A stretch of 64,000 nucleotides of DNA. Source: Podarcis gaigeae. Lineage: Eukaryota. Both the position numbers and the translations under genes were made by a program. Each line of letters opens with the position of its first letter. The stretch's first letter is position 1. The notes under the pieces were generated by a model. It was not told the origin of the DNA. It saw nothing but the letters and a program-made list of their open reading frames with translations, and made no database searches. Below, in pieces: positions 6,713 to 61,928 of the stretch. The DNA lies in the NCBI GenBank assembly GCA_964106915.2, contig OZ066922.1. One strand, 5' to 3'.

Positions 6713-8096
6713 CAGGAGAAAAACAACGAACACAACTGAGAAGTAAGGAGATAGGCAAAGGAAGGTGGGTCTAGCTAAGTTCAAGAAGGCATCCATGGGT
6801 TTGGAGCAGACTCAAAGAAAGATGAAGTGGGTGCAATAACCAAAGGGCTATATGAAGCAGAGCATATTCTGGGTCGAAGACTGAACTAAGTGGGGGCTGT
6901 AACAGGCCTAATTGTAGAAGTCTTCTTGATTGTGTAGCCCCAAATGGTGAAAATGTTCTCGAAGGCTTGCAAATGCCATCTTGATAGTCAGTATAACCCT
7001 GGGACTAATTCTTAGTTGCTGCAAGAATAAGATCATGTATGTTTATTCACTTGCTTTGATGTATGCTAATTGGCTTCTTTGATGCTATGTTTATCTGTGG
7101 TGGGCTTGGGACCTTTGGCTATTAGCCTTCAGAAAGGAGCTATCCATGAATTTTGAGTGCCAGTCACCTATGCCTTCAGCAGCAAAGTGCACTGATGGGA
7201 GGTTCTGGCCAAATGGATGCATGCTGCTTTTTGTATAAGTAATGCTTAACCTGTCAGCACCTCTCAGACAAGTCATGACAACTGCTTGCTGCTTCAGTGT
7301 TTGCCTGGAGCCGGTAATGGCAGCAAGGCTTGTCAGGCTGTGTTGTATTCTACACTTCCTTCTAATAAAGCTCTAGAATGGGCTATTCTGGAATTTTTGA
7401 CATCCTTTTTTGGTAGCCCTGCATTAAACCACTCTCACAACTCATACCTTGGGGCTGTGGATCAGGACACTGATGAATGTTAACCATAAATGGTCATCTC
7501 ATTAAGGACAGGACTGGAAGAAGGGGCAATAAATGTTAATTAACTATAGTATGTGGTTACATGAATACCAGTTTCCTGCCACATAGTTGCCAAATAGTAA
7601 TTATTCTAGTGTTGATTAAAACACAGATTTTCAAGTATGTCTACATTAAAAATTCACAATATCATTAATACAGGAGCTTTAGTTTTGAAATGTATTTTTT
7701 ACTCTTCTTGGGCTACTATTCTGGATAAAAACTAAGGGCATACTTTCATTAGATGCATTAACATGCACAGGCTGCAGCAAATTTAGACAATAAAAGTTCC
7801 CAATTCTCCACTTTCACTTGCATAGGGCATTCCTCAAGAAAGCATGCCTGTCAATATCTTTATTAATAGCTGTCTTTCTTCTAGATATTGGAGTTGTGCC
7901 ATTAACTGAATTCAAATACTTTCAAATGCATCTTTTAAACATAGTTGCACTGAACAACATGTAGATTCGGATGTAGAAGTAGGTTTGTGTTTGGATACCA
8001 TGGTTGGTAGCTGGATATTTGGAAGTTCAAGCCATGGTCTGGGTTCCAAACTATGGTTAGTGCTAACCATAGTTTGGTGTTGTTTCTATATACATC

Positions 8097-8921
8097 TGTC
8101 AGGGGCTCAGGAGCAGAGGCACAGGGGAGAGAGGAAACGGAGAGCGAAGGGGAAGAATCTGAGGACAGCGTAGGGGAGTATGACAGTGGCCCGAGAGATT
8201 CCATGAGCTTCTCCAGCAATTCAGAAGATTCCCAGAGGGGGGCGCCGATGGCCAGGGCAAGGGGGGTCCCAGGGGGGACGCACCAGAAGCAAGGGGCCAG
8301 CGGGGACTCCCAAAGCAGTAGCGGGAGATCAGGACCAGTTCCCCCTCCAGAGCGTAGTGGGGGGGAAGAGTCCCATGTATCAGGGCCAGCCTCTCCTCCA
8401 GTAGGGAGAGAAGATGAGTCAGAGCTGACCACGCCTCTATCGGAGAGTGAGGGAACGGAGGGGAAGTCAGGTCCAGCTAGCCCCCCCTGAAGGGGGAAGC
8501 AGTGACAGGAGCAGTGTAACGGTCAGGAGAAAGGTTGCCGGCTGGGCGCGTGCGCCAAGTTCAAATGTGCAGGCGCGCGGGACAGCAGAAAACCCGGATT
8601 GGGAACCAGGTCCTAAAGCCCGCCGGAGGCAGGGGGAAGACTCAGGGGACTCAGCGTCAGAAGAGTCTAGAAAGGGCAAGACCCCAGTGGACAGGCGGAC
8701 CCAGAGGAGGAAAGAGCAAAGGAAGAAGTGGAGCAAGGCTAGAGTCTTAAACTGGTGTCTGGGAGGAGGAGATTCAGACGGAGCTTCAGCGGTCTAGAGT
8801 TCAAGACGTAGAGCTGCGCGCCGCGGCTTTGAAATCGAAACTGAACTTCAATAAAGACTTTTGTATATAGCAAGAACTGGCGTTGGTCCTTTGTGAGCTG
8901 GGACCTCGGACAGCTCTGACA
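8097..8921 (+). mobile_element. Solo LTR (Ty3/gypsy-like, 5-bp TSD), young and CpG-rich
   Basis: TGTCAG...CTGACA inverted termini; perfect TSD acatc at 8092-8096 and 8922-8926; AATAAA at 8850-8855; many intact CpGs. Confidence 0.85.
8098..8797 (+). pseudogene. LTR-internal reading frame, ~232 aa after removing one C; acidic/Ser-Pro-rich N part and Arg/Lys-rich C part
   Basis: Track ORFs 8053-8490 and 8447-8797 join at the C7 run 8481-8487; frame is open from LTR base 2; SGPASPP repeated with synonymous codon changes. Confidence 0.55.
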
Positions 8922-9100
8922 ACATCCATTTCCTTTTGTCTTTCTTTCTCTTTGCTGCAGTTGTGATTTCTGTACTAATAAGGATTTAGCTATGATTATC
9001 TCAGCTATACAAGGTGCCCTGTTGAAAACCAAAGCAACCAGCTACCAGAACATACATTTTAAAAACTGTAATTTCTTCAAATTACTTCTGGGAAAACTAC

Positions 9101-9540
9101 TGGTTTTCCCAGTAGTGATGTATGGAAGTGAGAGCTGGACCATAAAGAAGGCTGATCGCCGAAGAATTGATGCTTTTGAATTATGGTGCTGGAGGAGACT
9201 CTTGAGAGTCCCATGGACTGCAAGAAGATCAAACGTATCCATTCTTAAGGAAATCAGCCCTGAGTGCTCACTGGAAGGACAGATCGTGAAGCTGAGGCTC
9301 CAATACTTTGGCCACCTCATGAAAAGAGAAGACTCCCTGGAAAAGACCCTGATGTTGGGAAAGATTGAGGGCACAAGAAGAAGGGGATGACAGAGAATGA
9401 GATGGTTGGACAGTGTTCTTGAAGCTACAAACATGAGTCTAACCAAACTGCGGGGAGGCAGTGGAAGACAGGAGTGCCTGGCATGCTCTGGTCCATGGGG
9501 TCACGAAGAGTCAGACACGACTAAACGACTAAACAACAAC
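9101..9540 (+). mobile_element. RTE-BovB LINE, 5'-truncated 3' end
   Basis: Translates as VFPVVMYGSESWTIKKADRRRIDAFELWCWRRLLRVPWTARRSN...LRLQYFGHLM..EDSLEKTLMLGKIEG; (caa)n-type tail; 14-bp TSD aatttcttcaaatt at 9070-9083 and 9541-9554. Confidence 0.95.
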
Positions 9541-9723
9541 AATTTCTTCAAATTCCTGTACTGTCTCAATACCTCTGAATATTCTTTCAAGTCTCTGGCA
9601 AAGAGTAAAGTTAAAATTGCAGCAGGCATGATCCCCCTCTTTCTAGTACCACAACACAAAGAAAGGCAGGGAGAAACTAATGGGCTCTTTTTTAAAAATG
9701 ATACACTATGAGTTGGCAACAAA

Positions 9724-11709: not shown

Positions 11710-12349
11710 GTGCCAAAGGTTTTAGGTCAGAGCTGGTAAATCTATGGCTCTCCACAGAGCCATTCATTCATTCAGTTTAGTGCACAGTTGCTTTGTACAA
11801 GAGATGAGTCAATTAAGCATTAATAGCTAATCTTTCACTTTTTGAAAGTCAGAATTCTAAATTGGAATATAATGTTGCCCAATAAAGTTGTGTAATTAGT
11901 TAATATTGTCTATATTCCTTGAAGATTTACTTCAACACTTTAAAACTGAAGTTGAATCCCATCAGTCACTCGCATAGAAAAACATGTCACTGCACTGAAT
12001 GAAATATCTTCTTTCCTGTTAATGGACTTTTATAATTCCGTAATTGCAGTTATTACATGATGATAAATTTGAGGGTGCACTTTGCATGGAGGTTATACTC
12101 TGACCCACATTAAGCAGTGTGTTCTTTTCCATACCTTTAATCTTGAAAAATCTATATAACTACTTACATAATGGCCTCTTGAACTCAGGATGACACAATG
12201 CACTGAACCATTATTCTTGCATTCCAATTATTAGTCATAAAAGCATTTTGTATACTTCCAAGGACTTCATAAAATTATCATTTACATTTACTAGCCTCAG
12301 CTGAATATATTTAATATGGTTAGAATTATGCCACCCTTGCACTAAAGTA

Positions 12350-12575
12350 CAGTGGTACCTCGGGTTACAGACACTTCAGGTTACAGACTCCGCTAACCCA
12401 GAAATAGTACCTTGGGTTAAGAACTTTGCTTCAGGATGAGAACAGAAATCGTGCTCTGGCACCGTGGCGGCAGGGGGAGGCCCCATTAGCTAAAGTGGTG
12501 CTTCAGGTTAAGAACAGTTTCAGGTTAAGAACGGACCTCCAGAACGAATTAAGTACTTAACCCGAGGTACCACTG
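12350..12575. mobile_element. Tc1/mariner-superfamily (Tigger/pogo-like) MITE
   Basis: TIR cagtggtacctcgggtta / taacccgaggtaccactg; TA on both sides; same family at 35054 and 46041. Confidence 0.92.
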
Positions 12576-14234
12576 TATTTATGAAAGGGCTTAACTGGGA
12601 GATTTCACTGAAGCTAAAGAACAGCAAGAAGTGGTCTCTGAACTGCTTGATGAGTTGATAATTAACTATTATAGTTCTCTAGTATCTAACATGTAGTATT
12701 TAATCTTAGATGAGGTGACAAAGATATTTGGTTGAATAAACATCCATTTTGAAAGGGAGTTCCTTGAGTCTTTGTTGTCAGGCTCCGTAAGAGTAAAATG
12801 TCTTTCCAGGAGTGGAATGCAGGCTAATGAAACCTGTGTGAGAGAGAGCTATGTCTGTCAGCTCTGATTATAAGTTTATTTTACTTCTTTTGAACAAGTA
12901 TAGTTTTGAACAACCTAATGGGTCTGGAAAATGCTTCATTCCAAAAAGAATAAGTATTTTTATGCACCCAGTCACTTCAAACTGCACAGTATTAATATTT
13001 GCAATAGGCCACACTTGACGTCAGTGGGAAAAAGGGGCTGTAGGAATGTAAAGCTTCTCCATGCATTTGGGAACCCTGACTGGACATGCCCCTAATCAGG
13101 TGAAGCAGCTGTATGTGCACAGAGCTGTGAAGCGGGCTGCATGAATATCACAAGAAGTGGGAAATCAAGTAAGTACTATACAATATAGTTGTATCCAACA
13201 CTACTTTGTCTTCCTTCCCTTCCCCGGCGTGCCCTCAAGTTCTCCAAAGCATCTGGGGCTGTTTTTGAGGACACACAGGGGCTGGAAGGAACAGGAGAGG
13301 GAAAAGAAGTTCCATTATGCACAAGGAAGTGAAGCCCAGCCTATTTTTTTTTTTAAAAATGTAGCACATTTACACATCTCCACTACAGCTTTTTTTTTTT
13401 TGCCTCCTGAAGCCAGCTCCACACAGCCTGAGACCAGAAACAAATTTGTGATGTTTGAAGTAAACCAATTCTCATGTTTAGTTTTGCTGATATCGTTTCA
13501 ATTAGCTAAAAAGAACCCATTACCAACTATTGAACTGTGGCTCGTTAGAACCCATTAGCTGTAGGGTGTTCACATGTGATGACCCAGAATCACATTTAGG
13601 CTGATGGAGCTCTGGGTAAAAATTGCTGACAGATCCTTCCACATCCAGCCATGTGCATTACTTTATGAAATTGTGGTTTATCTGCTCTCAGAGCCTTTTA
13701 AAACTATTATAGGTTAACAGACTTCAGAGCATTTGTGAGAAATGCTGTGCTCTTTGGCTTCTCACTTTGAATTAAAAGTATGCAACAGGCAGGGAATGAA
13801 CACACTTCAAGGAGAGATGTGTCACAGCCAAAATGTAGTAAAAATGGGCACTTTTAGTGATGCTTTGATTGACAATCATACTATAAAATCCTGGGAAATG
13901 GATGGGAATCCTATTGATTGATAGGAAGTGGTAACCATTCTATTCACAAAGGCTCAGAAGAAGTCAGGTACTAAGTTTCCGAAAAAGAGATGATGAGAAA
14001 TAAAAATTGGATTCTGGCTTTGCTCTTAAGTTGGCTAGGTCTGGAACATGAACAGATATTGCTTTGGGACTAACACTGTCTGAACTGGCTGTTTCTCCCT
14101 TATCATTCTTCCTCAATTCGTACATTTTCCACTGTATTGCTATATAGAGATCCTGGCAGCTGCCAGCATCCATGTCAAAAGTTCCATTTGCTGAAATGTC
14201 TTCATAGTATCTGTCCACATATTTAGAGGGATAA

Positions 14235-22160: not shown

Positions 22161-24300
22161 TTTTTCTCTGCTTCAACAATATTTCATTATGTTCCTATCA
22201 TTTAATGTAATTGTATTTTCTATACCATTGTAATTTTAAAAAATAAAACATGTTCTATTTACAAACAAAGCATTTATCTTTCTACCAGTCGGATAGGGGG
22301 GCATAGGCAGGATTTTTGTTTGGACCAGGCTTTTGTTAGGGGAGAAGAACCTCAGATTTGTATTGCTTTTTACTGATTTTTACTTGTGGGGGCAGCTGCC
22401 CCTCCCCCCCCGGCTACGCACAGGAAGGAAGCAAGGTCAGAAAGGGACCATGGTTGGGAAAAGGCTGGGAAACACATGGTTCCACACCATGACTTTTTGT
22501 ACTGTATTTGATTAATAGAAAAAGGAATCAACCTTGTTATGCATACAGATGATTACCAACTTCTCCAGAAGCTTTTGTCCATGCAGGCCTATTAAGCTCA
22601 TGGGGATATTCCCATTGCCTTCAGCAGGATATTCACTGACTGCATCAGTAATCCTCAGCCATGAAATGTAAACTGAAATTGTGTTTTGGTTTTTCAAGAA
22701 GCAATCCCACCTCATCCTTTGACCCATTCTGGAATGCTGCTTTAATGCTTTCATTTGAATAAAAAAGGGAAAAACATTTGCTTTTAGGGCTCTCGGCTTG
22801 CCCTAGTTGTAGCCCTTCTAGTTGTTGGACACAGTTAATCAAGTAACTAATAAAGCACTTTAGGAGATGTGCAGGTAAAGGCTGAACCAATATTGCAGAA
22901 TTATTATTAAATTTGTATACTGTCTTTCATCTGTAGATCTAAGGGTGGTTTACAACATAAAATTACAATATAAAAAAACCACACAATCCAATATAAAAAT
23001 AAGAAGAAAAACAAACCAATAATCTCCTCTCTTTCCCCTCATGAAATACAGACGTCTCTGGCTGTCTTTCATAGGTTGGTAATGACATTTTATTCCGGCA
23101 AGCTTTTGTCTGCTAAATATTTGCTGCAAAGGTCATGTTTTATCTGTGGCCTCTGCCTTGGCTGTATTTTTAAAGTAGAATTCTTTAACACACTTTGATT
23201 GTTATTTTTTTTTATTGCATTTTATGCCATTGGGTTTTAAATTGTGGTAACCAGCTCTGAGTAGGCACTTGAAGGGTGGGACAGAACTCTTGAAATTTAT
23301 GGGTCCAGCTCCGGAACTGGAAAAGGAGATGCTTCCTTTCCCACTGAGCATTTTAGCTGCTGCAAAAGCTCAAAATCCAGCTGTGTCCCTAACCTGCAGT
23401 ACAGGAATACTTCAGTCTTATCACTCCACCAGAAAAAAGCATGTCCCAGGAGCAATGCCATGTCATGCAGGAGCAATGCCATGGAAACTGCTGATGGAAA
23501 TTCTGGCCTATTTAATGCCGCACATGCATCTCTTGGATGGGCTAGTTTCCTATTGAAAAGGCAGTCAGACAAATCTTCTGCATTATCCCAAACGCAGAAT
23601 GGTAAAAGCTTTTATCTTTTCACTTCTGATAAATTGGCTGCCCTGCTGATTTTGAATCCAATGATTCTCCAGTAATTGAAGCCATCCAGATCCTAAATGA
23701 TGCACACTTAAGTAATACACTGTAAAGAATCTGCCCGTAGCAGCTCTCTAACATTAGTTCCTAGGATCCTGCCAAAAGGTGATAAGCCTCCAAATTGGTA
23801 TTACTGTTACGAGGTAAGAGCTCTGCTCATTACATGCTAAATCAATAAACTTTGAAGTTGTATTCTTCACTTTGAAGCTGACCAAGACTTCCTTTTGAAG
23901 CTTACTTTCATATATTTTACCATCCAAAGGAGAGAAGTGGCATAACCTAACACTTTTTCTACCAGAGGTAAAAGAAGCTTCAGTTTGAAAACAATGTAGG
24001 TGAGTGAGATCGGGGACAATCCTGTGTCAAGATCCACCAGGATGAGCAGCTTAGCATGCAACAGATTTCTGGCTCAGCTGGCTGATTCCTGGCTCAGCTG
24101 GCATTAAGTACCCAACCCCAGCTCAGCTGGCATAACTTGCTCATCCCAGCTGAGCTGGCTGAGCTGAGGCAGGTGTAAGTCTCAAAAATAAGGCATTCAG
24201 TGGGTGTGACAGGATCAGAGGGTGGGGGTGGGGGACTTGGGATGGATGCTAAGGCTGTTCAGTTAGGTTATGTGACCTGGAAACTTGGCATATAGCACTA

Positions 24301-24655
24301 CAGTGGTACCTCGCAAGACGAAATTAATTCGTTCTGCAAGTTTTTTCGTCTTGCGGATTTTTCGTCTTGCGAAGCACGGATTCCAACCCAAAATCCAAAC
24401 CCCCCCCAAAAAAGTTTTAAAAGTTTAATTTACCAAATGGCTGCAAAAGAAGTTTTGGAAAAGCTTCAAAAATCACCAAAGTCTTCAAAAACCTCAAAAA
24501 AGGCTCAAAAAAGGAAACAAACTTGCAAGACGTTTTCGTCTTGCGAAGCAAGCCCATAGGGAAATTCGTCTTGCAAAGCAACTCAAAAAACGAAAAACTC
24601 TTTCGTCTTGCGAGTTTTTCGTCTTACGAGGCATTCGTCTTGCGAGGTACCACTG
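24301..24655. mobile_element. Tc1/mariner-superfamily (Tigger-like) MITE, second family
   Basis: TIR cagtggtacctcgcaagacgaa / ttcgtcttgcgaggtaccactg; TA flanks; repeated ttcgtcttgcga motif inside. Confidence 0.92.
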
Positions 24656-25665
24656 TATTTTAATGGCTTGTTTTCCCTCAGCCAGGCTTGGCAGAAAGCA
24701 GGAAAAGCAGCTGTGCTACTGATCAGAGTTTGGATCTGGTGTAACTTTACAGTGGCTTAACTTCCACTGGCTTGCTTTCGGTCAGCTTCTTGAGCACTGG
24801 ATTGCTCCCATAGTTGTGTAGCGAACCACTGTAATGTTGATTTACCTTTTTAAAAATACTTTTTTCTGGTATGTGTGTGTTTGCAATTGATATAAAATCT
24901 TACCACACACACAGATAGAGAGATAGTATACTACCCTTTTTCTGTATATCAGGGCAGGTCACAACATCAAATACAATATAAAAACACAAAATACATGGCG
25001 ACAAGCAAAAGATCAAAAAACAAGAACAAATGCCCTCAAACAAAGGAACAGCACAATTATTATGCTCTTAGAATAAAAAGAGGTATGTGTATCCTCAACG
25101 ACATGACTTTAATTTTTATAAAGTGAATGTTGAAGGAAGTCTATGGTTGCAATGCTAAGTAAAATTATATGCAATTAAATTTTACTTTAATGTTGTAAGC
25201 TGCCTTGTTATAGGTTGGCCAATAAATGTTGTAAATAAAATAAATAGATCCCACTGAAATAAATGTAATTTTATTTTCATATATACATTGACAATGAGGT
25301 TGCATGCCCTTGCAATATGAAACAGAATGCAAACTTATATCCAATTATAAATTCAAGTTGTTGACAAAGCCAGTTAAAACTGTTACGTTAGGGTTTTTTT
25401 TTTGGTGATGGGAGTGATGTTTCTATCAAATGAAGGGCCACAATTCTACGACAAAGGCAAACGATCTAACCAATATTTTTAGTCAACTACTGGTACCAAA
25501 AAGTAAAGCGAAATATACCAAGCATGAAATCAATTCTGAAAACTGAGGTGGGAGGGATTAATAAACTAATCAATCTATAAATTTAAAAGTAGGGTCATAA
25601 GACCTTCTACTTTAAACTTAATAATCTATAGAAAGATTTCAGTAGGAATAAATGTTTTAGAAAAA

Positions 25666-28129: not shown

Positions 28130-28455
28130 ACATAGGAACTTGCCTTATACAGAGTCCGACCACTAGTTCATCTAGCTTAAGCACTGTCTACACCAGCGGT
28201 TCTCATCCTGTGGGTCCCCAGATGTTGTTGGACTACAACTCCCACCATCCCTGAGCTCTGGCCTTGCGAGCTAGGAGTGATGGGAGTTGTAGTTCAACAA
28301 CACCTGGGGACCCACAGGTTGAGAAAGGCTGGTCTACACTGATTGGCAGCCGTTCTCCAGGGTTTCAGTCAGGCAAAATTCTCAGCCCTACCTGGAGATG
28401 CCAGGTACTGAATCAGGGACCTTTTCCAGGAAAAACAGAGGCTCTGCCCTTCCCT
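28130..28455 (-). mobile_element. tRNA-derived SINE with CR1-like tail (Squam2-like), split by a MITE
   Basis: cataggaacttgccttatac..gaccact.gttcatctagct.. | ..gcagccgttctccagggtttcag..ccctacctggagatgccagg.actgaa.cagggacctt; degraded relative at ~30070-30200. Confidence 0.7.
28194..28331. mobile_element. Palindromic hAT-type MITE nested in the SINE
   Basis: Long inverted arms; perfect 8-bp TSD gtctacac (28186-28193, 28332-28339). Confidence 0.9.
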
Positions 28456-31876: not shown

Positions 31877-34217
31877 TCTGAAAAATTGCAATTATGGTAA
31901 ATTTTATTTGTGCTGACATTTTTAAATGATGTCAACTGATTGCTTTAATTAAGGTGCAAGATGTTTATACATGTGCATCTTTATTCACCAGTACAAAACA
32001 GCACTGAAGTTGTAAGAATGCATAAACACTTTGGGCTGGTTCACACATATAACAGTGTCACCAGATTCAGAGTGTCCTTTGGCTTGTGTATGCCCACAAT
32101 AACTCACATGGGCCAGTAGTATACCTAAATACATGGTAGATGGACAAGCCCCCATTAGATCTAATCAACTCTTGAGTTGCTGTACATGGAGCAAGGAATA
32201 GGGCCACGCTGAGTAGCTCCACTCTGACATTGCACACTGCATTCACACCTTCTGCCAACATCTGCACACGGAGTGTTTCATACATCTAGTTGTACATGCG
32301 AAGGCTTTCCTGGATTCTGGATCCTGAAGAACTGGCACCCAATTCTATGGAAACCTTCACACATGAAGCTCATGAAGGCCTCCGCCTTACAGGCATTTGC
32401 ACTGTATGCACAGATGTTAGGGGAAGGTCTGGATGGGATAGTTAGGGATCCTTAAGAAACTAATTATTTGCAGATACTGATAGAAATGGACCTGATATAC
32501 ATCTTCCAGGTTAAGTACAAACTCGTTATCCATTGGTTTTCACACTTCCTGAAAGTTCTGATTCAATTGTTAACACACACACACACACAAAAAGTACACA
32601 AAAATTTTGCAGTGTGTGTTTTGAGAGAAAATACATTGAGAACTGTATATTTAAATTCAAAATTTTATGATCGTTTTGGATCCAATACTACTGTTCTCCT
32701 GGTGCACAAGACTAGCTATTACTTGTGCAACTGAAATTTCCCTTTGTCTCCTATTCCATGCAGCCCCCCATGACCACACGAAACCTACTTCAGAGGAACC
32801 ATTCCAAGCAGATTTTGAGGGTTATATGGGGAGAGGAATCCTTGTTACATGTGTGATCTCTGCACACTCAGAGTTGTTTTCAAGTCACAGATGTATGCAG
32901 AAATTGAATGGAACAGGTTTATGGATGAATACATGCAAAAGTGATGCAACAAGAAATATATTGATTTATTCATCCTTATGCTCTACACTCAAAAGCAAAA
33001 AAACTTTAAACTGATTGCAAGATTAAAATCCTATTATTCTAAGTTCAGCTATTAGTATTAAGAACATCTTCTCCATAACATGCAGTTTTTGTGCTAGTGA
33101 AATGTTAACTTTCTAGCACAGAAACCTGATGCACTGAATAAATAAATGCAATGTGCTTTGTGCTGGGTAATAAATGCTGTGTAATACTATTACAAAAATC
33201 TCTTTAATTAAGGATACTTTGAATGGGGACAGATATGTTACTGAGACGTCTCCCAGGAAACTGATTTAGCTAATGATAGCAAATGGCAATAACAGTTGTT
33301 TAATCAGGACACCATTAGCATAAATTCAGTTTAATGGGGATACATTTAGATTGTGGTAAGTGGAGTTTAAGCAAGTGAAACATAGGTAGGATTTGAGAAA
33401 CTTTTAATCTATTAATCACTGAATGAATACTTAGATTTTCAATCACAGAGGAACTGGCAATCAAGCAGAACTCACCAAAGCAGGGGGCAGTGGGGGAAGA
33501 TCCCTGAAAAACAAAACTCTGCATGGAAGTTCCCTCCAGTATAGATAATTTCTAATCAATACTTCAGCACTTGACAGTGAGCCTCCTAAGGAGCTTCATT
33601 CTCACCCTTCTTTTCACAGAATTCCTGAACCCTCGATCCCCCTCTATTTAGATTACTTTAATGTTTCTAGCACTTGTTGACCAGCAGGGAAGAAATGAAT
33701 ACACTTCAAAACCAGCTAGTATGCTGAATTTTGATATATTCATTTGGATCTGTTTTAGGTTTGGGTTTTAAAAACTACTTGTGTGAAAATTCAGACTACT
33801 GGCAGATTTTGTGTTGCAAAGAATAAACACATGGCTCAAAAAACAATATGCTGCTATGGCTGCTACAAAGCAAGGAGGCGCTCAGGAAATGTGATTTCTC
33901 TCACATAGGTAGTTAGCCAGCAAGTTCTATTTGCGTGGAGGGCTAAAGAATAATATATGACCACTAAAATATGAATGACACAACCTAAACAGTTTGGGAC
34001 CCAATAATCTAAAACAGCACCTCCCCTGATATCAGCTATATCAGGTCTTACCACTGTCACTGAGCCACCACTGACCAGCTGGATTGACCCATGGCAGGAT
34101 CTTCTTCATGGTGGCTCCCAATTTGCAGAATGCCCTTCCTGGACAGGTCCTTCGGTCTCTCTCATTATTGACATTAAGCATTCTGGGTTAGCCAGGCACT
34201 GGATAGCTGAAAAACAC

Positions 34218-34652
34218 TGTTCCTGGCAATCTCGAAATTATTAGTTGTGAGCGTATGCTATTGGCTCAGAGGGAGAACAGGGTCAGGGAGAGTGACCCTC
34301 CCTCCTCAGAAATGCCAGCTGCTGATTCTAGAGATAGCATGAGGCAGGCTGAGTTTGAGTTGGAATTGGATCGAGAGGGGGAAGGAGAAGTGGAGGAGCA
34401 ATCCCTCCCAGAATCCCCTCGCAGTCGACGCATGAGCAAACTCCAGGACCGACGTCAACCCTGCAGGAGGTGGGGTCCGGGTCGGAAGTTATTCTGTTGT
34501 TAAGGGAGGGCCCAACCATTGGGGCTATCTGACTCTTCTGAGGATGAATGACCGTGAGGGTTCGGACTGAGCTACTGTGTAATTACCCAATAAATCCAAG
34601 AAACTGTAAACCTGTTGGCATGCTGTTTCTTGGTGTGATCATAAATCCAACA
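34218..34652 (+). mobile_element. Solo LTR, 435 bp, with internal acidic/basic reading frame
   Basis: TGTT...AACA termini; flanks aacac / aaaac (4/5); AATAAA at 34589-34594; frame open from LTR base 2 to 34503. Confidence 0.65.
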
Positions 34653-34671
34653 AAAACTAGAGCTGCAGCCT

Positions 34672-34743
34672 GTTGAGATTCCTGCATTGGACCACAAGAC
34701 TCTTAAGAGTCCCTTTCAACTCTACAATTATATGACTCTATGA
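34672..34743 (+). mobile_element. CR1-type 3' tail remnant
   Basis: gagattcctgcattg..gtccctttcaactctacaattatatgactctatga. Confidence 0.6.
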
Positions 34744-35053
34744 CATACTTTTCCATTCATGAGAGGTCCTCAGAAACCCCACTGCCACAAACTGACAATT
34801 ATCCCCTAAATCCAAGATGACAGTTCCAGCTCATGTGACACTCACACACCAGGGATATACCTTGTAACATTTTCTTGTAGGGACCCACTTACCTGTATTT
34901 TATGTTGTTATAATTAATTAATAGAATGCACATGTCACTTGATTGTTAACAAATAAAAACCCTCAAAAGTGGTATACAATGTTTAAATTTTTACTTTTTT
35001 TGTTATTAGCCTGTAAAAATGTTCATCTGCACAACCCAAAGAGAATTCTTATA

Positions 35054-35295
35054 CAGTGGTACCTCGGGTTACATACGCTTCAGGTTACATACGCTTCAGG
35101 TTACACACTCCGCTAACCCAGAAATAGTGCTTCAGGTTAAGAACTTTGCTTCAGGATAAGAACAGAAATCGGGTTCCGGCGGCGCAGCGGCAGCTGGAGG
35201 CCCCATTAGCTAAAGTGGTGCTTCAGGTTAAGAACAGTTTCAGGTTAAAAACGGACCTCCGGAACGAATTAAGTACTTAACTCGAGGTACCACTG
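35054..35295. mobile_element. Tigger/pogo-like MITE (12350 family)
   Basis: cagtggtacctcg TIRs, TA flanks; extra tandem copy of ggttacatacgcttca. Confidence 0.92.
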
Positions 35296-35759
35296 TAATC
35301 GTTTCTGGGGGGAAAAAAGATCTACTATGCTAGTCATGGAAATTCTACCCAGTTACTCCCCCAGCATGAAAATCCCAAAGAGCTCCATATCGACTAGTCC
35401 CAAATATGAACCATCATACCACGCAGTGTTTCTTTTTTGAAAGAACCCATTCATTCAGCTCAAAAGTAAGGCTGATAGCTACTGGCGCCTGTTATTATAG
35501 TTTATCTGGGAAAGTGTTGAAATATGACATTACAAGTAAGTCTCTAAAAGAAGCTCCACATGTACAAAACATATGAAAAATAGGACTCTTTATAGGCACC
35601 GAACATGCTAAGTGTTCAGATGACCGTGTATCCTTAAGCATAACATTGGGGTAACAGAACTTTAGAATAACTGGTGCTTGATACACCGACCCAGGATTAA
35701 TCACTCATGCTCTGTTGTTGTTCTCTCTCTCTTTTCCAGCTGCAAGCTGAGCATGGGGT

Positions 35760-35891: not shown

Positions 35892-37101
35892 AGGTTATAA
35901 ACAGTTGAAAGTGATGGAAATATAGTACAAATGAATCAAGCTAAAAGTGTGTAGCGTGATGCGTGCAGACCTAGAAGTGGTGTTTCAACACCGCACCTGG
36001 AAAGTAAGACAAAATTTCACAGATCTCTTCCACAAAGGCCTTTTCAGTAATAAATGATCATAATAAATTATAAATTGCTATTAGATTACCAGGCCTTCAC
36101 ATCTGACCTCTATGCGCTGTTTGCAAGATGTTTCTTAAAAAGCATATTGGGGGAGCAAATCCCTTCCATTTAAAGAAAATAAGGTTCTTAAAGATTTACT
36201 CATGTGGCAAAAAGCATGGAAATGGCAAGTCGGGGCACCTAGCCTTAACTTCTATGTCACGTAAGCAATAAACACACAGACTCAAATAATGTGCTCACTG
36301 ACAATTACACTTTACCCTCCATGCATGCACTCTTACTTGGTCTTTCAGACTAAATCCTCTTCCTTTGCAGTTCAAGAAAAGTTAAGTCAAAAGCCTTTAA
36401 AATTGACAGTAGATGTACCAGTTCCTTGGTGTTTTCTGGCGCACAGTGCAAACTAAAGACGTCTTTACATTGATGCATATTTAAGATGCTTGAAGTAATA
36501 GATCCTTTTGAAACATCCTGCTCTTTATTTCACAGACGAATCTGAAGACTTCATTCACCACTAAATATTTTTTGTACTTCTGAAAATGTCAGAATTAGGG
36601 ATGAAGGAGAAAATGGATCCAGTTTCCATTTACAGGTGAACCTACCTGATCTACACTTTCCAGAACTATATGCCAAGCATTCTTTGAAATTTGCACTTCT
36701 CTGAACTTTCATTGCTCTCCTCCAGCCAAGTAATGGTTTAAAAATACATATACTTGGATAGAGTGTGCATATAAAAGCATGCATTCATTAAGATAACATA
36801 CAAAATGCATTATGTTAGGAGAAATTGCTTTGCAAAATTTTGTATATTAGGCAATATTGTATACAAAATGGTACATATTATGATAAATTCACACTAAAAT
36901 AATGATGAATGTTCTTGAGTACTTGTTGAGGGTAGGGGGTAACTGCAGACTGATGTGGAAATGTGGAGAACGGAACTTCAGATTGAAAAAATTAGAAATT
37001 CATAGGAAATAAACCTCCGGTGTATAGTGAAATCCTAAGCTTATTTACCCAAAGGAAAGTTTCTTTAGGATCAGTGGAACTTACCCACTGGTAAGCATGT
37101 T

Positions 37102-37515
37102 GTACGGAAGTGAGAGCTGGACCATAAAGAAGGCCGATCACCGAAGAATTGATGCTTTTGAGAATTATGGTACTGGAGGAAACTCTTGAGAGTCCCATGG
37201 ACTGCAAGAAGATCAAACCTATCCATTCTTAAGGAAATCAGCCCTGAGTGCTCACTGGAAGGACAGATCGTGAAGCTGAGGCTCCAATACTTTGGCCACC
37301 TCATGAGAAGAGAAGACTCCCTGGAAAAGACCCTGATGTTGGGAAAGAGGAGAAGGGGACGACAGAGGACAAGATGGTTGGACAGTGTTCTCGAAGCTAC
37401 CAGCATGTGTTTGACCAAACTGCGGGAGGCAGTGGAAGACATGAGTGCCTGGCGTGCTCTGGTCCATGGGGTCGCGAAAAGTCGGACACGACTAAATGAC
37501 TAAACAACAGCAACA
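37102..37515 (+). mobile_element. RTE-BovB LINE, 5'-truncated 3' end
   Basis: Near-identical to 9101-9540 (RVPWTARRSNLSILKEISPECSLEGQIVKLRLQYFGHLMRREDSLEKTLMLGK); 9-bp TSD aagcatgtt (37093-37101, 37516-37524); 12-bp internal deletion. Confidence 0.95.
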
Positions 37516-42238: not shown

Positions 42239-42371
42239 TTGTATGAGCCATGATTTTTCTTTCTTTTCCAAACTAGGAATCCAACTGAGGTATTCAACAG
42301 CTAACTTAGTTGCTGAATACCTCAGTTGGATTCCTGGTTTGGAAAAGACAAAAAAATCATGGTTCATACAA
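42239..42371. repeat. 133-bp fold-back inverted repeat
   Basis: 66-bp arms matching 60/66 with a 1-nt spacer at 42305. Confidence 0.9.
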
Positions 42372-43042: not shown

Positions 43043-45087
43043 TATATAGGTAACCAACTTCTAAGTGGATGAAAACACAGAATCTAGAAGTGGACATTGC
43101 ATCAGATTAGTCTTACAGTTCCTTTTGTAGAGTTTTAACGTTTCAATGTATTTGATTTCTTTGTTCACAGTCTGCAAGCATGTTCGTGACCTATAAGTCA
43201 AGTGTGAATCCCCCTCCCCACCAGATCAAGCTAGTGAGAGCTATAAAAACACTAATTAAAAGACCTGAAAATACTTAGACTATTTATCAGCACCAAGGGA
43301 CCACTTTGAATCTATTATGTATCAAAAAAAAGGTCACACAGTCGATTTTCACAAGGTTTTCCTGGACTAAGCCATCACTTAGTGTCCAGAAAGTCAAAGA
43401 AGGTCTTGGGGGTGGTAAAGGAAAGAGAAGTTAAAGTTCCATAGGGACTGGAAACGCATATAGGTACAATGCAGGTAAAAATATTAGAATCAGGCTGCTT
43501 AATACAATGGCTGAAATTCTGAAGACAGACCACAGCACTTAAGCTCTCTCAAAGCAACAGGTTTAAGCATGGCTTGAGGGTAATGTGATCCCTAAGTAAT
43601 GATAACAGAATATTGAGAATGAAGCTGACTAAAGTCTAATTGGGTGATGTAGCGTACAGGGCAACGCTATGGTTCCGCTGCTATGGATGGACAAATCACT
43701 TCGACGTTTCTCATTTTTCCAATCCACATTTAGTATAATGCATTTTTTAAATGTTATCTTGACTAATATATGCATTTCTAGGCAGACTTTAGCCTAGCAT
43801 ATGCCTGTTTGTATACATTACTTAGCTAGAGAACTGAACTGCAACAGTCAGAGAAGTGTGAATTTTCAAGAATGGGTGCATTTCAGTTTGCACATTGTTT
43901 CAGAAAGTGAGAGTTAGGTAAGATGGCCTTTAAATTCAAGTGTGTTGGATTTCTGCCCCATCCCTATTTCCTACTCTGGGTAAACACTGCACCGGGGATA
44001 GCAGTAGCAGGGCTGGCCCAGGACATTTTATTGTTTTTGGTTCAAAACGGAAGCATATTCCTTCCATTCCATCAAGAGAAGCCGTTTTGAATGGAAGCTG
44101 CATTTCATTCTGATATTAGTCATGGGAAACCAGCTTCCTCCACACCTGAGGACAGCACACTCTGATAGCACAGGTTGGTCAAGAGTGTGGCTGGGGAGGT
44201 TGCTGTTGCCTCCACCCTCCAGCACCTAGTTTTGCAAGCATTGCATAAGGCACTTTTATATGCTAGATGAAGATGTGTGGGAGGGGCACTGTGTACTTGA
44301 TGTGAAAGAGCAGAGTTACTGTGTAGGGGAGCTCTTTCAGATTGCATAATGAACACTGGAGATCAGATACCATTCCCCCTCTACCACCATGTCCCCCCTC
44401 TACCACCATATTACACCTGGTTAGGGCTTAGGCCAAACTCTTAAGCACTTGCAGCAGCAGTAGCAACACTAAAACAACAGTTGAAACACCAAATTCAGCA
44501 CCGCTATACATACTGACAGACATGCCTACAGCATCATTGCCAATCCTATAAACTGTGCAGGTTGTAAGGCTGGGCCTACTCGACTTGCACTTACTTGCAC
44601 GTAATTGAAGAGGAGCACTTACTCTTATGAGCAAGGAACCCCAGTTCCTTCTTTACTACATGGGCACTGTGATATTCTATCACTGTTCCCATGATAAGTC
44701 ACACACTTCTATTCTTGGAGCAGTTTGAGAACTGTTTTAAATGTGGATAAAAAAAACTGTAAACACTGAAGCTTATCACTATATACAGCTCTAAAAAGAG
44801 AGAGGGAACATGTTGCAATGTCACTTGCTTACTCAAAGCAAAGACCCAACTTCCATTTTCCTTTGGGCATTCCTTCTCTCTGGCACAAAAGCTACCATAT
44901 TTACTATGTATAATTGCCTTTGACGCTTTCTGCTTTATTATACTGGTACATCAAGAATCAAGTAGGATTGGAGCTAGTGTTGCCGCAGTACTAATGGGGA
45001 TGATACTTCCATTATTGTCTGTCTACACATAGCATTGAGCAAGATCAAGGCATTTGGAAAAACCAATATGACTATCCAGTAGGAGTA

Positions 45088-45317
45088 CAGTGGTACCTCT
45101 GGTTGTGAAAAGAATCCGTTCTGGAGGCCTGTTTGCAACATGAAATCCCGCAACCTGAAGTGTCGTATCTGCACAGGTGCGCAAAGCACGATTTAGCGCT
45201 TCTGCACATGTGTGAGTGGCGAAACCCAGAAGTAACCCTTTCTGGTACTTCCGGGTCGCTCTGGGATGCAACCTGAAAAAACATATCATGAAGCAAACGT
45301 AACATGAGGTATGACTG
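45088..45317. mobile_element. Tigger-like MITE
   Basis: cagtggtacctc ... gaggtatgactg with TA flanks. Confidence 0.82.
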
Positions 45318-46040
45318 TACTATATTAACACATGCTATATCTGAGTAAGAGATGAAGTGCTCATTATTCACTATTTATCCAGTGCTTTGGTGGTTTCAAG
45401 GCACCTTGTTTATATTAAAAACAATAAGGAATCTTGTGGCATGTTAAAGACTAGCACATTTATTATGCACCAGAGTCCACTCCATCTGCTACTTACATAT
45501 ATTTGCTTCACTGCCGAAATGTAGAGCTATTATAATGGGCTATGAGACAAAGTAACCAGAATCGTTTCAAGTGCTGAATAATAATCTGCTGGGAAGTCAA
45601 AAGATCTTATTATGGAGTCAAGAAAATAGTGCAGAAGTTGAAAATGTAGAACAAGCATCAAAGTATGTTAATCTTGCGGCCAAACTAAGGGCCTCTCCAC
45701 AGAGATCTTCCTGCTATTCTACTCATGTTATGTTAACAATCAGATAGTCTCCAGAGTCTTTAGAATATCTTGTGTAAAGCAACAGCACAATCTATTCAGG
45801 ATGAGGCTTCTCAAGTGCACAATCTTATCAACTGGATGCAGAATACTCTAGCCAGAAAGATAATCTGAGTCAATCCAATGAAACAGATATTCTGCCTTCT
45901 TATAATGGGGTATGCTGTAATTGTAATTGAACTAGATTCTGCAGTTGAGAAAGGCTAAAATTCTGGTCCATTAGTTGAGTATCAAATTTGTTTCCTGTGT
46001 GGAAAATCTAATAAGGTTGAGCTATGAACAATGTCTCATA

Positions 46041-46261
46041 CAGTGGTACCTTGGGTTAAGAACTTAATTCGTTCCGGAGGTCCGTTCTTAACCTGAAACT
46101 GTTCTTAACCTGAGGTACCACTTTAATTAATATGGCCTCTTGCTGCTGCTGCTGCCATGCGATTTCTGTTCTCATCCTGAAACAAAGTTCTTAACCCAAG
46201 GTACTATTTCTGGGTTAGTGGAGTCTGTAACCTGAAGCATCTGTAACCCGAGGTACCACTG
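46041..46261. mobile_element. Tigger/pogo-like MITE (12350 family, opposite orientation)
   Basis: cagtggtacc TIRs, TA flanks; interior is the reverse complement of the 12350 copy. Confidence 0.92.
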
Positions 46262-46759
46262 TACAACCAATCATAGAGTTTGAGATGCGCAAAATACATG
46301 ATGTCCAAAGTGAAGCTAGTTGAATGATGTTAAAGAATCCATGGCTTGAGTCTGAAATTGTTTATTAAATATCACACAGTTTATATTCAGTGACTTCAAG
46401 GGCGCCTTCATGGCAGATGCTCAAGGATTTTGTTCAGTCTGTATTTGCAAGCAAAACAGCTAAATTCACACTTCCTGGACTAACACACTACACATAACTC
46501 AGTTATTCTTTAGTTTTTGCACTTCTCCATTTCTTTTCAATGTAGCTCTCTGGTTTTAGGTTTCAAAAACCTGTTTTATAATAAAAATGCAAATCAGAAT
46601 TGCATTTTTTAAGAATAAAATTTGTCCAAATACAATCCAAGTTTTCAAAGCAGAAAATTTGGAAATGGTTCAGATTGGATTTATGAATGAACATGGAAAT
46701 AAAATGATCCATTTATAAATGATCCATTTATCCCTACTCACCAGTCAGTCTTATTACAA

Positions 46760-47349: not shown

Positions 47350-47760
47350 GATTGTGTATTAGCTCCTGGGCCCAATTAAAGGCGCACATGTTAGTGTTGA
47401 AAGCCATAAATCATCCGGGCCCCAAATATCTGAAAGCAGGCCTCTTTCACAGTTGCAGGTTTGATCCCTTTTGGGACAGCTGCATATTCCTGCACTGAAG
47501 GGGTGGACTAGATGACCCTCAGGGTCCCTTCCAACTCTACATTTCTATGGTTCCCTATAGACTAGCTCAGGGATTAAGATCAGCGGAGGACAGCCTCCAG
47601 ATGGTTCTACCACTCTCTGAGGTTTGTGGGATACTGGTTTGTGAGAAGGCCTTTTCATTAGTGGGACCCAAAGTGTGGAACTCCTCACAGAGGTGCATCT
47701 GGCAGCATCCCATTACAGTTCCTATCAGCTGCTGAAAACCTTTACCCTGGCCTTTGAAAA
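47350..47760 (+). mobile_element. Old L2-clade fragment carrying a short CR1-tailed SINE-like insert (~47450-47555)
   Basis: aaagccataaat..ggccccaaatatctga..aaggccttttca..gtggaactc; insert ends gggtggactagatgaccctcagggtcccttccaactctac. Confidence 0.55.
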
Positions 47761-53120: not shown

Positions 53121-54740
53121 AAAATGTGGTTACAAAGCATGGATCCTCAGGACCTTTGCATTGGGTCACCCCAAATTCACCATCAGATCACATAGCATGT
53201 CCATGGCTACAGCCTGCACCAAAAAAATCAAGCACCCACTGTTGCCTGGGGCTGCAATGGTGCAAAAATGTGGTTAAAAAGCATGGATCCACAGGGATTC
53301 TCAGGATCCTTGCATTGGGTCACCCCAAATTCACCATCAGATCACATAGCATGTCCATGGCTACAGCCTGCACCAAAAAAATCACGCACCCACTGTTGCC
53401 TGGGGCTGCAATGGTGCAAAAATGTGGTTAAAAAGCATGGATCCACAGGGATTCTCAGGATTTTGGCATTGGGTCACCCCAAATTCACCATCAGAGCACA
53501 TAGCATGTCCATGGCTACAGCCTGCCCCCCCAAAAATCACGCACCCACTGTTGCCTGGGGCTGCAATGGTGCAAAAACGTGGTTACAAACCATGGATCCA
53601 CATGGATCCTCAGGACCTTTGCATTGGGTCAGCCCAAATTCACCATCAGAGCACATAGCATGTCCATGGCTACAGCCTGCCCCCCCCCCAAAACCACGCA
53701 CCCACTGTTGCCTGGGGCTGCAATGGTGCAAAAATGTGGTTAAAAAGCATGGATCCACAGGAATTCTCAGGATTTTGGCATTGGATCACCCCAAATTCAC
53801 CATCAGATCACATAGCATGTCCATGGCAACAGCCTGCCCCCCCAAAATCACGCACCCACTGTTGCCTGGGGCTGCAATTGTGCAAAAATGTGGTTAAAAA
53901 GCATGGATCCACAGGAATTCTCAGGATTTTGGCATTGGGTCACCCCAAATTCACCATCAGATCACATAGCATGTCCATGGCTACAGCCTGCCCCCCCCAA
54001 ATCACATACCCACTGTTGCCTGGGGCTGCAATGGTGCAAAAACGTGGTTACAAACCATGGATCCGCATGGATCCTCAGGATCTTTGCATTGGGTCAGCCC
54101 AAATTCACCATCAGAGCACATAGCATGTCCATGGCTACAGCCTGCCCCCCAAAAATCACGCACCCACTGTTGCCTGGGGCTGCAATGGTGCAAAAATGTG
54201 GTTAAAAAGCATGGATCCACAGGAATTCTCAGGATTTTGGCATTGGGTCACCCCAAATTCACCATCAGATCACATAGCATGTCCATGGCTACAGCCGGCC
54301 CCCCAAAATCACGCACCCACTGTTGCCTGGGGCTGCAATGGTGCAAAAATGTGTTTAAAAAGCATGGATCCACAGGAATTCTCAGGATTTTGGCATTGGG
54401 TCACCCCAAATTCACCATCAGATCACATAGCATGTCCATGGCTACAGCCTGCCCCCCCCCAAATCACATACCCACTGTTGCCTGGGGCTGCAATGGTGCA
54501 AAAACGTGGTTACAAACCATGGATCCACATGGATCCTCAGGATCTTTGCATTGGGTCAGCCCAAATTCACCATCAGAGCACATAGCATGTCCATGGCTAC
54601 AGCCTGCCCCCCAAAAATCACGCACCCACTGTTGCCTGGGGCTGCAATGGTGCAAAAACGTGGTTACAAACCATGGATGCACAGGGATTCTCAGGATTTT
54701 TGCATTGGGTCAGCCCAAATTCACCATCAGATCACATGTC
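53121..54740. repeat. ~154-bp tandem satellite-like array, ~10.5 units, AAB higher-order pattern
   Basis: Unit starts at 53268, 53422, 53577, 53734, 53888, 54042, 54196, 54349, 54504 and 54658, plus a shorter lead unit at 53121. Confidence 0.95.
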
Positions 54741-57552
54741 TGTGGCCACAGCATGAAGCACAAAAATTATACATCCACTGTTTCATTCAGAATGTTTTTT
54801 CCCTTGTTTTCCTCCTCTAAAAACAATGTGCGTGTTATGGTCAGGTGCGTGTTATAGAGCGAAAAATACGGTATCATGTGAGAGGCATCCGCTTTAGTCC
54901 ACTTCGGTTCCTTACTTTTAATTTTCACCCTTGACTTGCTTCAGACATTTTGCTTTCTCTGCTTTAATGCATTTAGAATCCATGTATAAAGTATATTAGG
55001 AGGAATGTGCTTGTCCTAGTAATAAAACAATTATGTTGACTGGAAAAATCTATGAAGAATTGGCTTGTATCTCATGTAGGACATCTAATTAATTTTACAC
55101 ACACCTGATTGGGTTTGTGAGACCTGCTTTGGAGGAGGGAGGATGGCATTCAAAGGTGGTGTCACTCTTAACGTAACAAGTATCACAAGCCCATCCTTGA
55201 GACACTATTTATTCTATACCTTTATTATAATGAAGTTAATCTGTTTGTAAGCTGTGAGTGCCTTTATGAAAGATCAACTACATACTGGTTTTGTGATGTG
55301 CTGGTGCTATTAGCATGTCCAATAGTATCTTATTGCCTATGTGATTGCTACTCATTTGGGTCATTGGTCTTGATTACACTGTTTTGTATTCTCTCAGTCT
55401 ATGTGATTCCTTAAATGAAATGCCTCTTTCAATTATTGGTCACAACCATCTTCCTCCACAGGTCTAGTCTGGAGCTCAAGACATTTTAGGGCGTATCTTG
55501 CAGTAGCATTTCATAAAATCTTGCTCTGTTCTAGTTGGTTGTTCTCAACCTAAAGAATGCATTGGCAGCTCTTTATCTGTTCAGATATACTCATGAGGTT
55601 TTCCTTGCAAAAAATGTGGCCTCAGTCTTTCCCTCCAAAATGCCTATTATGCCACACATTGCAACCCATTGTCAGGCATTTCATGGAATGCTTCAGCAAT
55701 GTGTGGAAGACTAGATATTTAATACCTCTTCTGGTGTCAGGGAGTCTGTTTCCTAGATATTTTTTAGAGTAGATGAATTGGCAGTTTGCCCCTAAAACGA
55801 GCTGCATCCAGCACTGCATGCATAGATTTTCACTTGCACAGCGGGACTTCCCTTTCATCTCCTCTCTCTGTGCCACCCTCAAAATCTACTCCAGAAGGTT
55901 CTCCAATCGCCTGGTGCAGATTTTTGGAGGTGCATGATGTTGCTGGAGAGAAGAGAGCAAAGTTCCATTGTGCAAGCAGTTGTCTGCTGCACTAGCATTG
56001 AATATTACCCTATGTATATTGTTCATACCTTTAATGTGATTTATATATATATATTTTCATTGGAAGCCAGCTTAAGAAACCATGATAAGGTAGTGGTGGT
56101 ATAGGGCACCTAAGCTACTCACTTTACAAGCTACAGTTACTATTATTACTTTAAGATTTGCACATGATATTAAGTCTTATGCACAGTTTCTGAATATGAG
56201 ATTTAAAAGTGTCCAGGTAGATAATTGAGTGAAGTGGCAATAAAGGTCCTCACAAAACAGCCTGTCTTTAAAATTAGAAAAGATGTTCTTTATCACTATC
56301 TGGTGTGCCTTTACTCCAGCCATGTATCTCTGATATTTGTCCCTTGTATGACATTTAATTTCCTGGGAGACTGGAAAGTATGACAAGGTTTTTTTTTTCT
56401 CATCAGATGAGATTTTCTGTCACCTTGGGTAACCATTAGCCTTATTTTTCTTGTTTATGCTCTTTTATCTTTTCATACATAGCCTGTCCTATTCATACAT
56501 CATATTGAGCTAGCACTGGTATCTGTTTAAATTATGTTAAGTATATTAGATTTATAAAACTGAAATAGAGCTTTTAAAGTTCCGGGCTCTTACTTATGGG
56601 ACATCTTGCTGGACTCATCCTTTGCTTTCTATTAGACATCTTTTAAAAACTGTACTGTTTAGGCAGGACTTTGGAACCTGAATTTTCATACCAATCAGTC
56701 TTACTGAAAAGCTGTTAATGTTTTTATGATGTTATTGTTGTGGTATCAGGATTTCATATTGTACACTGCCTTGTTTTATTTTCTATGAATGTATAGTTTA
56801 TTAATATTTAAAGAAAATAAATGCATACCATATACTGTACTGCCTAGTAATTTAATCTTTGCTTGCTGTTATTTCACCTTCTGTCCCCAAGACTTTTCAA
56901 CTGCTTGTGAACTTTCTGCAGTACTGAAATCTGGAAATTTTTTGTATAAAGATCTATAAAATCTTCAGAGCAAATGAACAGAGAACCCGTTAAATCATAT
57001 TCATATTCATAAGCTACCTGTATTGTCTCTGTGCATGACAAAAATACAATGGGGCAGAATGTTTTGCAGGCGATAGGGGAACCAACATACAAATATGTAG
57101 ATAAAGACTTCATAACAAAGCCCTGAGAATACTGAAAAGTATTCTTTTCCACTTGCAGAATCCTATCAAAATGATAATCACCGTTATTTGAGCAGATGTG
57201 TAAATAGGGTATCACACATCATTAGTGTTTCTACTTCAGCAATAAAAAGGCACATAAATTCTTTGTTTTTGTCTTTCTGCGGAGGAGTGGAAAAAATTAT
57301 TTGCATACAGTAAAGGGAAAACATAAAAGGTTTAACTATGACCTTTATTTTTATAAGGAAAGAAATATGGCGGAATTGTCTCCCCTTAATTAGGGAAGAG
57401 CAATCTAAAGGGAAATGCTGTCAAATTAGCTACGGCAGCACTCTCCAGAAGGCAGCATCAACAAATGAATGTAGGTAAAATATGCCCCCCTCCCTCACCA
57501 CCATAGTAAGACATTAAGCTTACCCTGGATATCTGGCAAGACCAGGACACTG

Positions 57553-61792: not shown

Positions 61793-61928
61793 CAGTGTTT
61801 CCCAACCTTGTGCCTCCAGATGTTTTTGGCCTACAACTCCCATCATCCCTGACCACTGGTCTTGCTAGCTAGGGATGATGGGAGTTGTAGGCCAAAAACA
61901 TCTGGAGGCACAAGGTTGGGAAACACTG
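61793..61928. mobile_element. Palindromic hAT-type MITE, young
   Basis: Perfect 58-bp inverted arms (61793-61850, 61871-61928) with a 20-nt loop; perfect TSD ttctaaag (61785-61792, 61929-61936). Confidence 0.95.

Follow-up and report, generated by a model that had tools for sequence, protein, structure and literature searches.

Does the open reading frame near 34 kb in a stretch of Podarcis gaigeae DNA (64,000 nucleotides of contig OZ066922.1, assembly GCA_964106915.2; hereafter the window) encode a peptide characteristic of long terminal repeats (LTRs), and if so, what was that peptide part of? An earlier note, made from the letters alone, had described positions 34218–34652 as an LTR whose frame opens at base 2 and ends in a motif shared with the peptide of another LTR, at 8097, and had read the two as a conserved module in diverged LTR families. 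The analysis presented here leads us to regard the 34-kb element, from 34267 to about 34641, as probably an old solo LTR, truncated at its 5′ end, from a Ty3/gypsy chromovirus of squamates, with a frame that is a relic of the C-terminal tail of Pol and not a separate peptide.

Boundaries of the 34-kb element

Four runs out of the 23 listed, from organisms A, B, C and D, supplied the contigs that were compared with positions 34000–34900 at 80% likeness; the contig depths given below are not copy numbers. The body of the element proved to be repeated, as the earlier note had supposed: in all four runs compared it is a dispersed low-copy repeat, with a family that matches 34371–34638 at about 84% identity. 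Neither of the LTR ends that the note had proposed withstood the comparison. Contigs of a high-copy repeat run unbroken through 34218, over 34188–34255, where the depth is 2414–3688 versus 76.5 in the unique part (run X3); loose contig ends are found before 34192 and behind 34229/34251. Because this other repeat spans 34218, the TG there is no LTR end and the base-2 phase of the frame is a coincidence, the first 13–16 residues quoted for the peptide being those of another repeat. The proposed start (TGTTCCT) also misfits the Sushi 5′ motif TGTYANR given in the accessible text of PMC3601003, which the start of the 8097 LTR (TGTCAGG) fits.

The high-copy repeat is probably the 3′ tail of the same LINE as the multi-copy repeat upstream of it. 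We take the frame at 34090–34188 to resemble the C-terminal end of an L2/CR1-type LINE ORF2; motifs like that of this frame at 14899, 37928 and 58265 in the window are weak, non-significant matches.

On the 3′ side, the family contigs end at 34637–34638 instead of 34652 (at least eight contigs in three runs: X3 11, 13 and 15; X5 18, 20 and 21; X7 26 and 29), which gives a common boundary about 44 bases past the AATAAA at 34589. An A-rich five-base target site duplication (TSD) past 34652 was rejected because these five bases carry two differences in the orthologous contig of organism C. Positions 34218 and 34652 were thus both discarded as LTR ends, the first for the spanning repeat and the second for the family stop. 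The interval between them has neither a TG...CA pair at family boundaries nor a TSD, both of which are present at 8097–8921, and the revised interval, 34267–~34641, is a dispersed repeat whose copies have their 3′ boundary in common, just after AATAAA. Just downstream, 34674–34743 is the tail of a very high-copy repeat (depth up to 43,000 in X3) that recurs at 47504–47549.

At the 5′ side, orthologous contigs are longer than the window copy. The organism C ortholog (X5 record 16) skips nine bases and has 217 letters between, a net 208 extra bases, which is not a multiple of three; the organism D ortholog (X13 record 1) has a net 204 extra bases with a 2-base overlap, and a contig of organism B (X7 record 25) begins at 34265. 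The true LTR 5′ end and the left TSD probably lay within these lost 204–208 bases, and the 5′ TG terminus and TSD of the revised LTR would then fall in the 204–217 letters absent at this locus. A deletion of about 204–208 bases in the source organism would have taken the LTR 5′ end and joined the remainder to the LINE tail.

Table 1. Features of the 34-kb locus and of the LTR used for comparison (window coordinates).
Feature	Position	Strand	Details
Comparison solo chromovirus LTR	8097..8921	+	825 bases, TGTCAG...CTGACA; perfect 5-base TSD ACATC (8092-8096, 8922-8926)
Multi-copy repeat upstream	34093..34190	+	Depth 850-1015 vs 76.5 in X3
High-copy repeat across the proposed start, outside the LTR	34188..34255	+	Contigs 34188-34251 and 34192-34255 in X3 and X13; high depth in 4/4 runs
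Junction without the ~204-208 bases found in orthologous loci	34256..34266	.	X5, X13 and X7 contigs
Acidic part of relic frame	34267..34413	+	33% Asp/Glu
Basic patch	34414..34488	+	25 codons, 10 Lys/Arg, 1 Asp/Glu
Core motif	34489..34500	+	LFCC in the window copy; Trp at codon 4 in other contigs and Leu at codon 2 in a paralogue produce the h-h-x-W core seen in related Pol tails
Premature TAA	34501..34503	+	Private to the source organism's copy
Asp/Ser-rich frame end	34504..34551	+	15 codons, then TGA
AATAAA	34589..34594	+	38 bases past the TGA
Likely LTR 3′ end	34632..34641	+	GTGTGATCA region; family contigs stop at 34637-34638

The window holds several other repeats. Two fragments, at 9116–9542 and 37098–37513, are 84–98% identical and have a frame like the end of a reverse transcriptase; we take them to be Bov-B/RTE LINEs. 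Short elements with TACAGTGGTACC inverted-repeat ends, presumably Tc1/mariner-type MITEs, lie at 12348–12578, 24299–24657, 35052–35297, 45086–45319 and 46039–46264, and near-perfect short-spacer inverted repeats with arms of 63–67 bases at 28186–28339, 42239–42371 and 61788–61933. A satellite-like tandem array (53121–54827; a unit of about 154 bases in at least 11 copies) stands beside an N gap near 52.8–53.0 kb, and a GC-rich segment at 442–1047 has a stop-free frame of 201 codons with Pro-Ala-Pro-Ile repeats. Rfam gave no match in 33900–35400.

Reading frame of the 34-kb element and its copies

The frame from 34219 reads as quoted in the earlier note, with a TAA at 34501–34503 and a TGA at 34549–34551. 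The TAA is copy-specific, a point that the note had left to be checked: 10 of the 11 contigs covering the site differ from the window at both 34500 and 34501, and the sole contig that agrees is the source organism's own locus in a second sample (X3). In the other contigs, a sense codon stands in place of the TAA and a Trp codon in place of the second Cys; a paralogue that occurs in each of the four runs encodes Leu instead of Phe at 34492. Paralogues differ from the window copy at 43 of 268 bases in one comparison and at 32 of 206 in another, with zero gaps. Among the 12 indels listed, none falls in 34267–34550 and five lie at 34551–34558, just past the TGA; in one X7 contig, 78 bases spanning the frame's end are skipped.

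The ungapped 14-residue match to the 8097 LTR peptide is present, with five identities and a BLOSUM62 score of 30. Of 2000 global shuffles, 16 reached the local score of 52 between the whole peptides, as did 150 of 2000 local-composition shuffles; for the ungapped score of 41 the counts were 85 and 279 of 2000, respectively. Measured against these shuffles, the pairwise match alone is weak evidence. A shuffle test on the last 40 residues (5 and 26 of 5000) was given no weight, since that segment was picked after the match had been seen.

The register proposed for the motif, W-x3-R-x-L-x-[WC]-C-x-G, was rejected. MAFFT, given the window copy only, set its second Cys in the invariant Trp column of five other tails, and the other contigs do encode Trp there; the second Cys being a private mutation, the C-x-G part of the motif is unsupported. 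Nor do the two LTRs share a phase, as had been claimed, since within this window the motif of the 8097 LTR lies in frame +2 and its base-2 frame is +1. The note was thus right that the peptide exists and mistaken in both of the LTR boundaries and in the motif register that it assigned.

The parent of the 8097 LTR and the extension of pol into the 3′ LTR

The peptide of the 8097 LTR matched three proteins, two of which are Podarcis muralis gypsy polyproteins with PR-RT-RH-IN-SH3; in P0003, Pfam domains follow this gypsy order. The matches of the 8097 family are to Tf2-type gypsy Pol, with no pol of ERV or BEL/Pao type, and Pfam matched no family to the LTR peptide itself, or to that of the 34-kb element. 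The tail of P0170 is 84% identical to the 8097 LTR over 125 residues. In the window copy, the Pol tail is split between two frames near 8460–8510 and the motif lies outside the base-2 frame: tblastn with the P0003 tail placed residues 1–118 at 8098–8457 (+1) and residues 115–205 at 8510–8782 (+2). By these protein matches, the 8097 LTR belongs to a Ty3/gypsy chromovirus.

In the polyproteins of the 8097 family, what remains of the chromodomain is followed in the same frame by an acidic linker, then by the polypurine tract (PPT), translated as G-G-F-E-G-G-M-D, and then by Val at LTR base 2. The base-2 phase of the 8097 LTR is therefore that of pol reading through the PPT/LTR junction. The junction, G-G-F-E-G-G-x-D followed by V, is found in 12 of 18 proteins, 10 of which run on for 209–211 residues to the end of the motif; the Pol frame of the 8097 parent enters the 3′ LTR for about 209 residues after the PPT. 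The tail stops 53 bases before AATAAA, so that, given standard LTR structure, it would lie within U3 and on the genomic RNA.

Searching with P0001 gave 150 representatives. Three more families have a G/E-rich junction of D followed by V and a tail beyond it: P0027 (218 residues), P0020 (101) and P0073 (102), with integrases about 48–58% identical to that of P0001. The end motif was found in three of the 150 representatives, which are the three with junction tails. P0073, P0020 and P0027 derive from contigs of only 1.4–4.6 kb, which argues against an artefact of spliced gene models. In all four tails, an acidic stretch (19–27% D/E) is followed by a 25-residue patch with 8–11 K/R and at most two D/E, an h-h-x-W core and 8–13 final residues with Asp/Ser. 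Proteins of this kind are already in UniRef under generic names.

As predicted from these sequences, pol reads through into the LTR in the 8097 family and, at the level of predicted proteins, in three more families. The idea of a conserved module in diverged LTR families holds to this extent: four chromovirus families have position-homologous tails, which are the C-terminal end of Pol and not free-standing peptides.

The tail-bearing clade and its chromodomain

In an integrase tree built by a quick method from 85 of 86 rows (P0027 was left out), all tail-bearing rows fall in one 11-row branch with an SH-aLRT of 100, and the sister row of this branch is a Rhineura model. Three unlabelled rows in the branch are truncated or chimeric models; of the eight labelled ones, three (P0019, P0023 and P0169) stop short of the junction or close to it. 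Two NCBI models fuse a chromovirus integrase to a host protein, P0029 to a vomeronasal type-2 receptor (Podarcis muralis) and P0085 to TM9SF2 (Rhineura floridana); both are probably annotation chimeras, and possibly cases of exonisation.

The three aromatic residues of the chromodomain cage are all kept in none of the eight clade rows versus 51 of 65 others (73 of 154 rows could be parsed). The cage-incomplete rows are P0001, P0003, P0019, P0020, P0023, P0073, P0169 and P0170, and the 8097 family is without even the central Trp. P0001, P0003, P0170 and P0027 have no Pfam Chromo match, yet an alignable remnant; the sister rows P0073 and P0020 pass the cut-off.

A scan of metagenome contigs with P0073 returned 80 loci, all of distant chromoviruses with at most 47% identity and with no DNA match to either LTR. 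The chromodomain was reached by 75 of the 80, one of them cut off, and 71 of the remaining 74 stop within 50 residues past it. The distant chromoviruses differ from the tail clade both in this early stop and in the cage, which most of the other parsed rows keep. A scan of viral contigs found nothing.

A model of the tail and its possible function

In our model, the pol frame of this clade would continue past the chromodomain, through the acidic linker and the PPT, into the U3 of the 3′ LTR and end shortly before AATAAA, and the integrase would thus finish in an LTR-encoded tail that is presumably still attached after the protease has released the enzyme. The tail would be mostly disordered and acidic, ending in the basic patch and h-h-x-W. 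As to its job in active elements, we tentatively propose nuclear import and/or the anchoring of the integration complex on a chromatin factor of the host, in replacement of the cage-less chromodomain, a role that we hold to be possible though short of probable. The basic patch would serve nuclear localisation or bind chromatin, and the Trp core would be a short motif that binds a host factor.

The main rival on tail function leaves the anatomy of this model in place and concerns function only: the clade's pol may have lost its stop and run on through a purine-rich U3 that stays open, the patch and the Trp reflecting a DNA or RNA constraint near the polyadenylation signal. In its favour, the tails range from 101 to 218 residues with most positions unalignable, and an AlphaFold model of P0073 (6 sequences) is confident for the chromodomain and one helix only, with a tail pLDDT of about 40. 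The synonymous excess among copies of the 34-kb element is also weak (5 of 11 against an expected 22–34%, from 20 of the 40 differences listed). However, the MAFFT alignment has the Trp and the hydrophobic pair conserved across four families whose tails otherwise diverged, the 10 full-length tails among the 12 Podarcis junction proteins have been retained to the end, and the DNA at the 3′ ends of the 34-kb and 8097 LTRs is not alike (762 of 2000 shuffles reached the observed likeness). We consider a tail that is carried along in this way somewhat unlikely.

Relationship of the 34-kb element to the clade

The 34-kb element has the acidic, basic, h-h-x-W and Asp/Ser layout before AATAAA. A layout filter, which like the motif pattern was written after the sequences had been seen and which took its limits from the extreme values of the four Pol tails, retained two of the 804 core sites in the window; these belong to the two LTRs and have an AATAAA 100 and 106 bases downstream. 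The same filter gave one match in 40 shuffled windows and none when the acidic stretch and AATAAA were also demanded, and the GC-rich stretches at 2.8–3.9 kb and 21–22 kb have no such layout. With 94 codons remaining, the tail would have been about 100 residues long if the LTR began within the deleted bases. From this layout, together with the Trp codon in the other copies, we judge membership of the 34-kb element in the clade to be likely. The gap-free paralogues and the listed indels that begin just past the TGA also speak for this reading; the 78-base skip in the X7 contig and the 208 extra bases of organism C, no multiple of three, speak against it.

The 34-kb repeat could instead be an unrelated low-copy element, such as another LTR class or a non-LTR fragment, its likeness to the tails being a chance product of purine-rich, GC-rich sequence. 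Similarity searches fit this view. A profile built on 12 tails from the 8097 family does not have the 34-kb peptide among its best 25, and a four-family tail profile misses it; a two-family profile ranked it first of 2136 chunks, but with 5.9 bits against 5.6. Shuffles against the tails of P0003, P0027, P0020 and P0073 were non-significant (107–527 of 2000, global), tblastn with the P0073 and P0020 tails did not find the 34-kb frame at E≤5, and BLASTP of the peptide against P0003 gave nothing, all of these scores having been computed with the damaged copy and an X at the stop. Word-seeded protein searches at near or longer lengths found no homologous protein for the peptide, metagenome contigs no relative of it, and the ESM Atlas no usable match for either this peptide or the P0073 tail; aligning the DNA of the two LTRs told nothing further. 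The element stands without a linked pol, PPT or TSD, its 5′ terminus being gone. On the other side stand the filter, which matches the two LTRs only, the Trp that the alignment predicted and that other contigs carry, and the shared 3′ boundary soon after the polyadenylation signal, and we regard an unrelated element as improbable.

A separate small protein, made from a spliced or LTR-initiated transcript in solo LTRs as well, is a highly improbable reading of the frame. It would suit a frame that lies wholly in U3 upstream of AATAAA, the acceptor-like sequences ending in AG near the start of the 8097 LTR, and the Met codons at 34312, 34339 and 34432 of the 34-kb frame; against it, intact elements have the tail in one uninterrupted frame with pol, both copies in the window are broken, and all four Pol tails open with Val at the junction and not with Met. 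Co-option by the host has next to no likelihood, for although the insertion with its flanks is present in organisms C and D, and probably in B, the source organism has a deletion and a stop in it, and the orthologue-only differences (seven non-synonymous, two synonymous) are as expected without selection. Under the reading as a Pol-tail relic, the frame of a solo LTR would be untranslated and decaying, as there is no upstream pol; the private TAA and the deletion accord with this.

Comparison with known systems and implications

Coding sequences that overlap U3 are familiar from HIV nef and MMTV sag, but these are separate genes of enveloped viruses; the tail clade is like them in its coding use of U3. 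Short C-terminal signals of integrases that direct the integration complex include the nuclear localisation signal of Ty1, the targeting domain of Ty5 and the BET-binding tail of MLV. To our knowledge, none of these is LTR-encoded.

The closest parallels in layout come from plants. CRM group A is defined by a Pol that runs into the 3′ LTR, and the LTR encodes the CR targeting motif, according to the accessible text of PMC3059260; the part of PMC6317226 available to us ties the gain of the CR domain to the loss of the ordinary chromodomain. In Beta vulgaris, pol of the Bingo elements also extends into the 3′ LTR (PMC3605345, in the text available). The Pol frame of the squamate clade enters the 3′ LTR as in CRM group A (PMC3059260, PMC3605345 and PMC6317226, from the portions available), with a difference in the parts: the CR motif of CRM-A replaces the chromodomain (CR motif / CHDCR), whereas in the squamate clade a degenerate chromodomain persists upstream of the PPT and an acidic/basic tail of 100–220 residues is added. 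CRM is a plant lineage and the named relatives of the tail clade come from Podarcis; the parallel drawn here is one of layout. Bingo1–4 and Bingo7 are similar in having a chromodomain upstream of the PPT and a frame that enters the flanking LTR, but they are plant elements, and the accessible part of PMC3605345 describes no conserved acidic-basic-Trp tail. The Sushi-type chromoviruses of vertebrates and fungi share with the clade the order integrase-SH3-chromodomain and an AATAAA close to the LTR's 3′ end, as given in the available text of PMC3601003.

LTR-borne frames are absent from the accessible portion of PMC4585706. Our literature search, which covered few subscription journals and no Repbase reports, found no LTR-encoded Pol tail in squamate or other vertebrate chromoviruses, and an earlier description may exist.

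The 34-kb locus itself is a dead fragment, and its value is in the clade feature to which it points. For annotation, the finding is a caution that open acidic frames in lizard solo LTRs may be Pol tails and not new genes. In the clade, U3 would act as promoter region while also coding for the C-terminus of integrase, and this would go with the loss of the chromodomain cage; a vertebrate lineage would thus repeat a change that in plants accompanies centromere targeting. The tail offers a candidate signal of about 40 residues for nuclear entry or for the choice of insertion site by a vertebrate LTR retrotransposon. Going further, the squamate clade may have evolved its LTR-encoded integrase tail independently of plant CRM, the basic patch and h-h-x-W replacing the methyl-lysine-reading chromodomain as the targeting determinant, a speculation that we rate as unlikely. 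If it is true, the clade would insert at distinct chromatin, perhaps centromeric or other heterochromatin, by way of a host partner.
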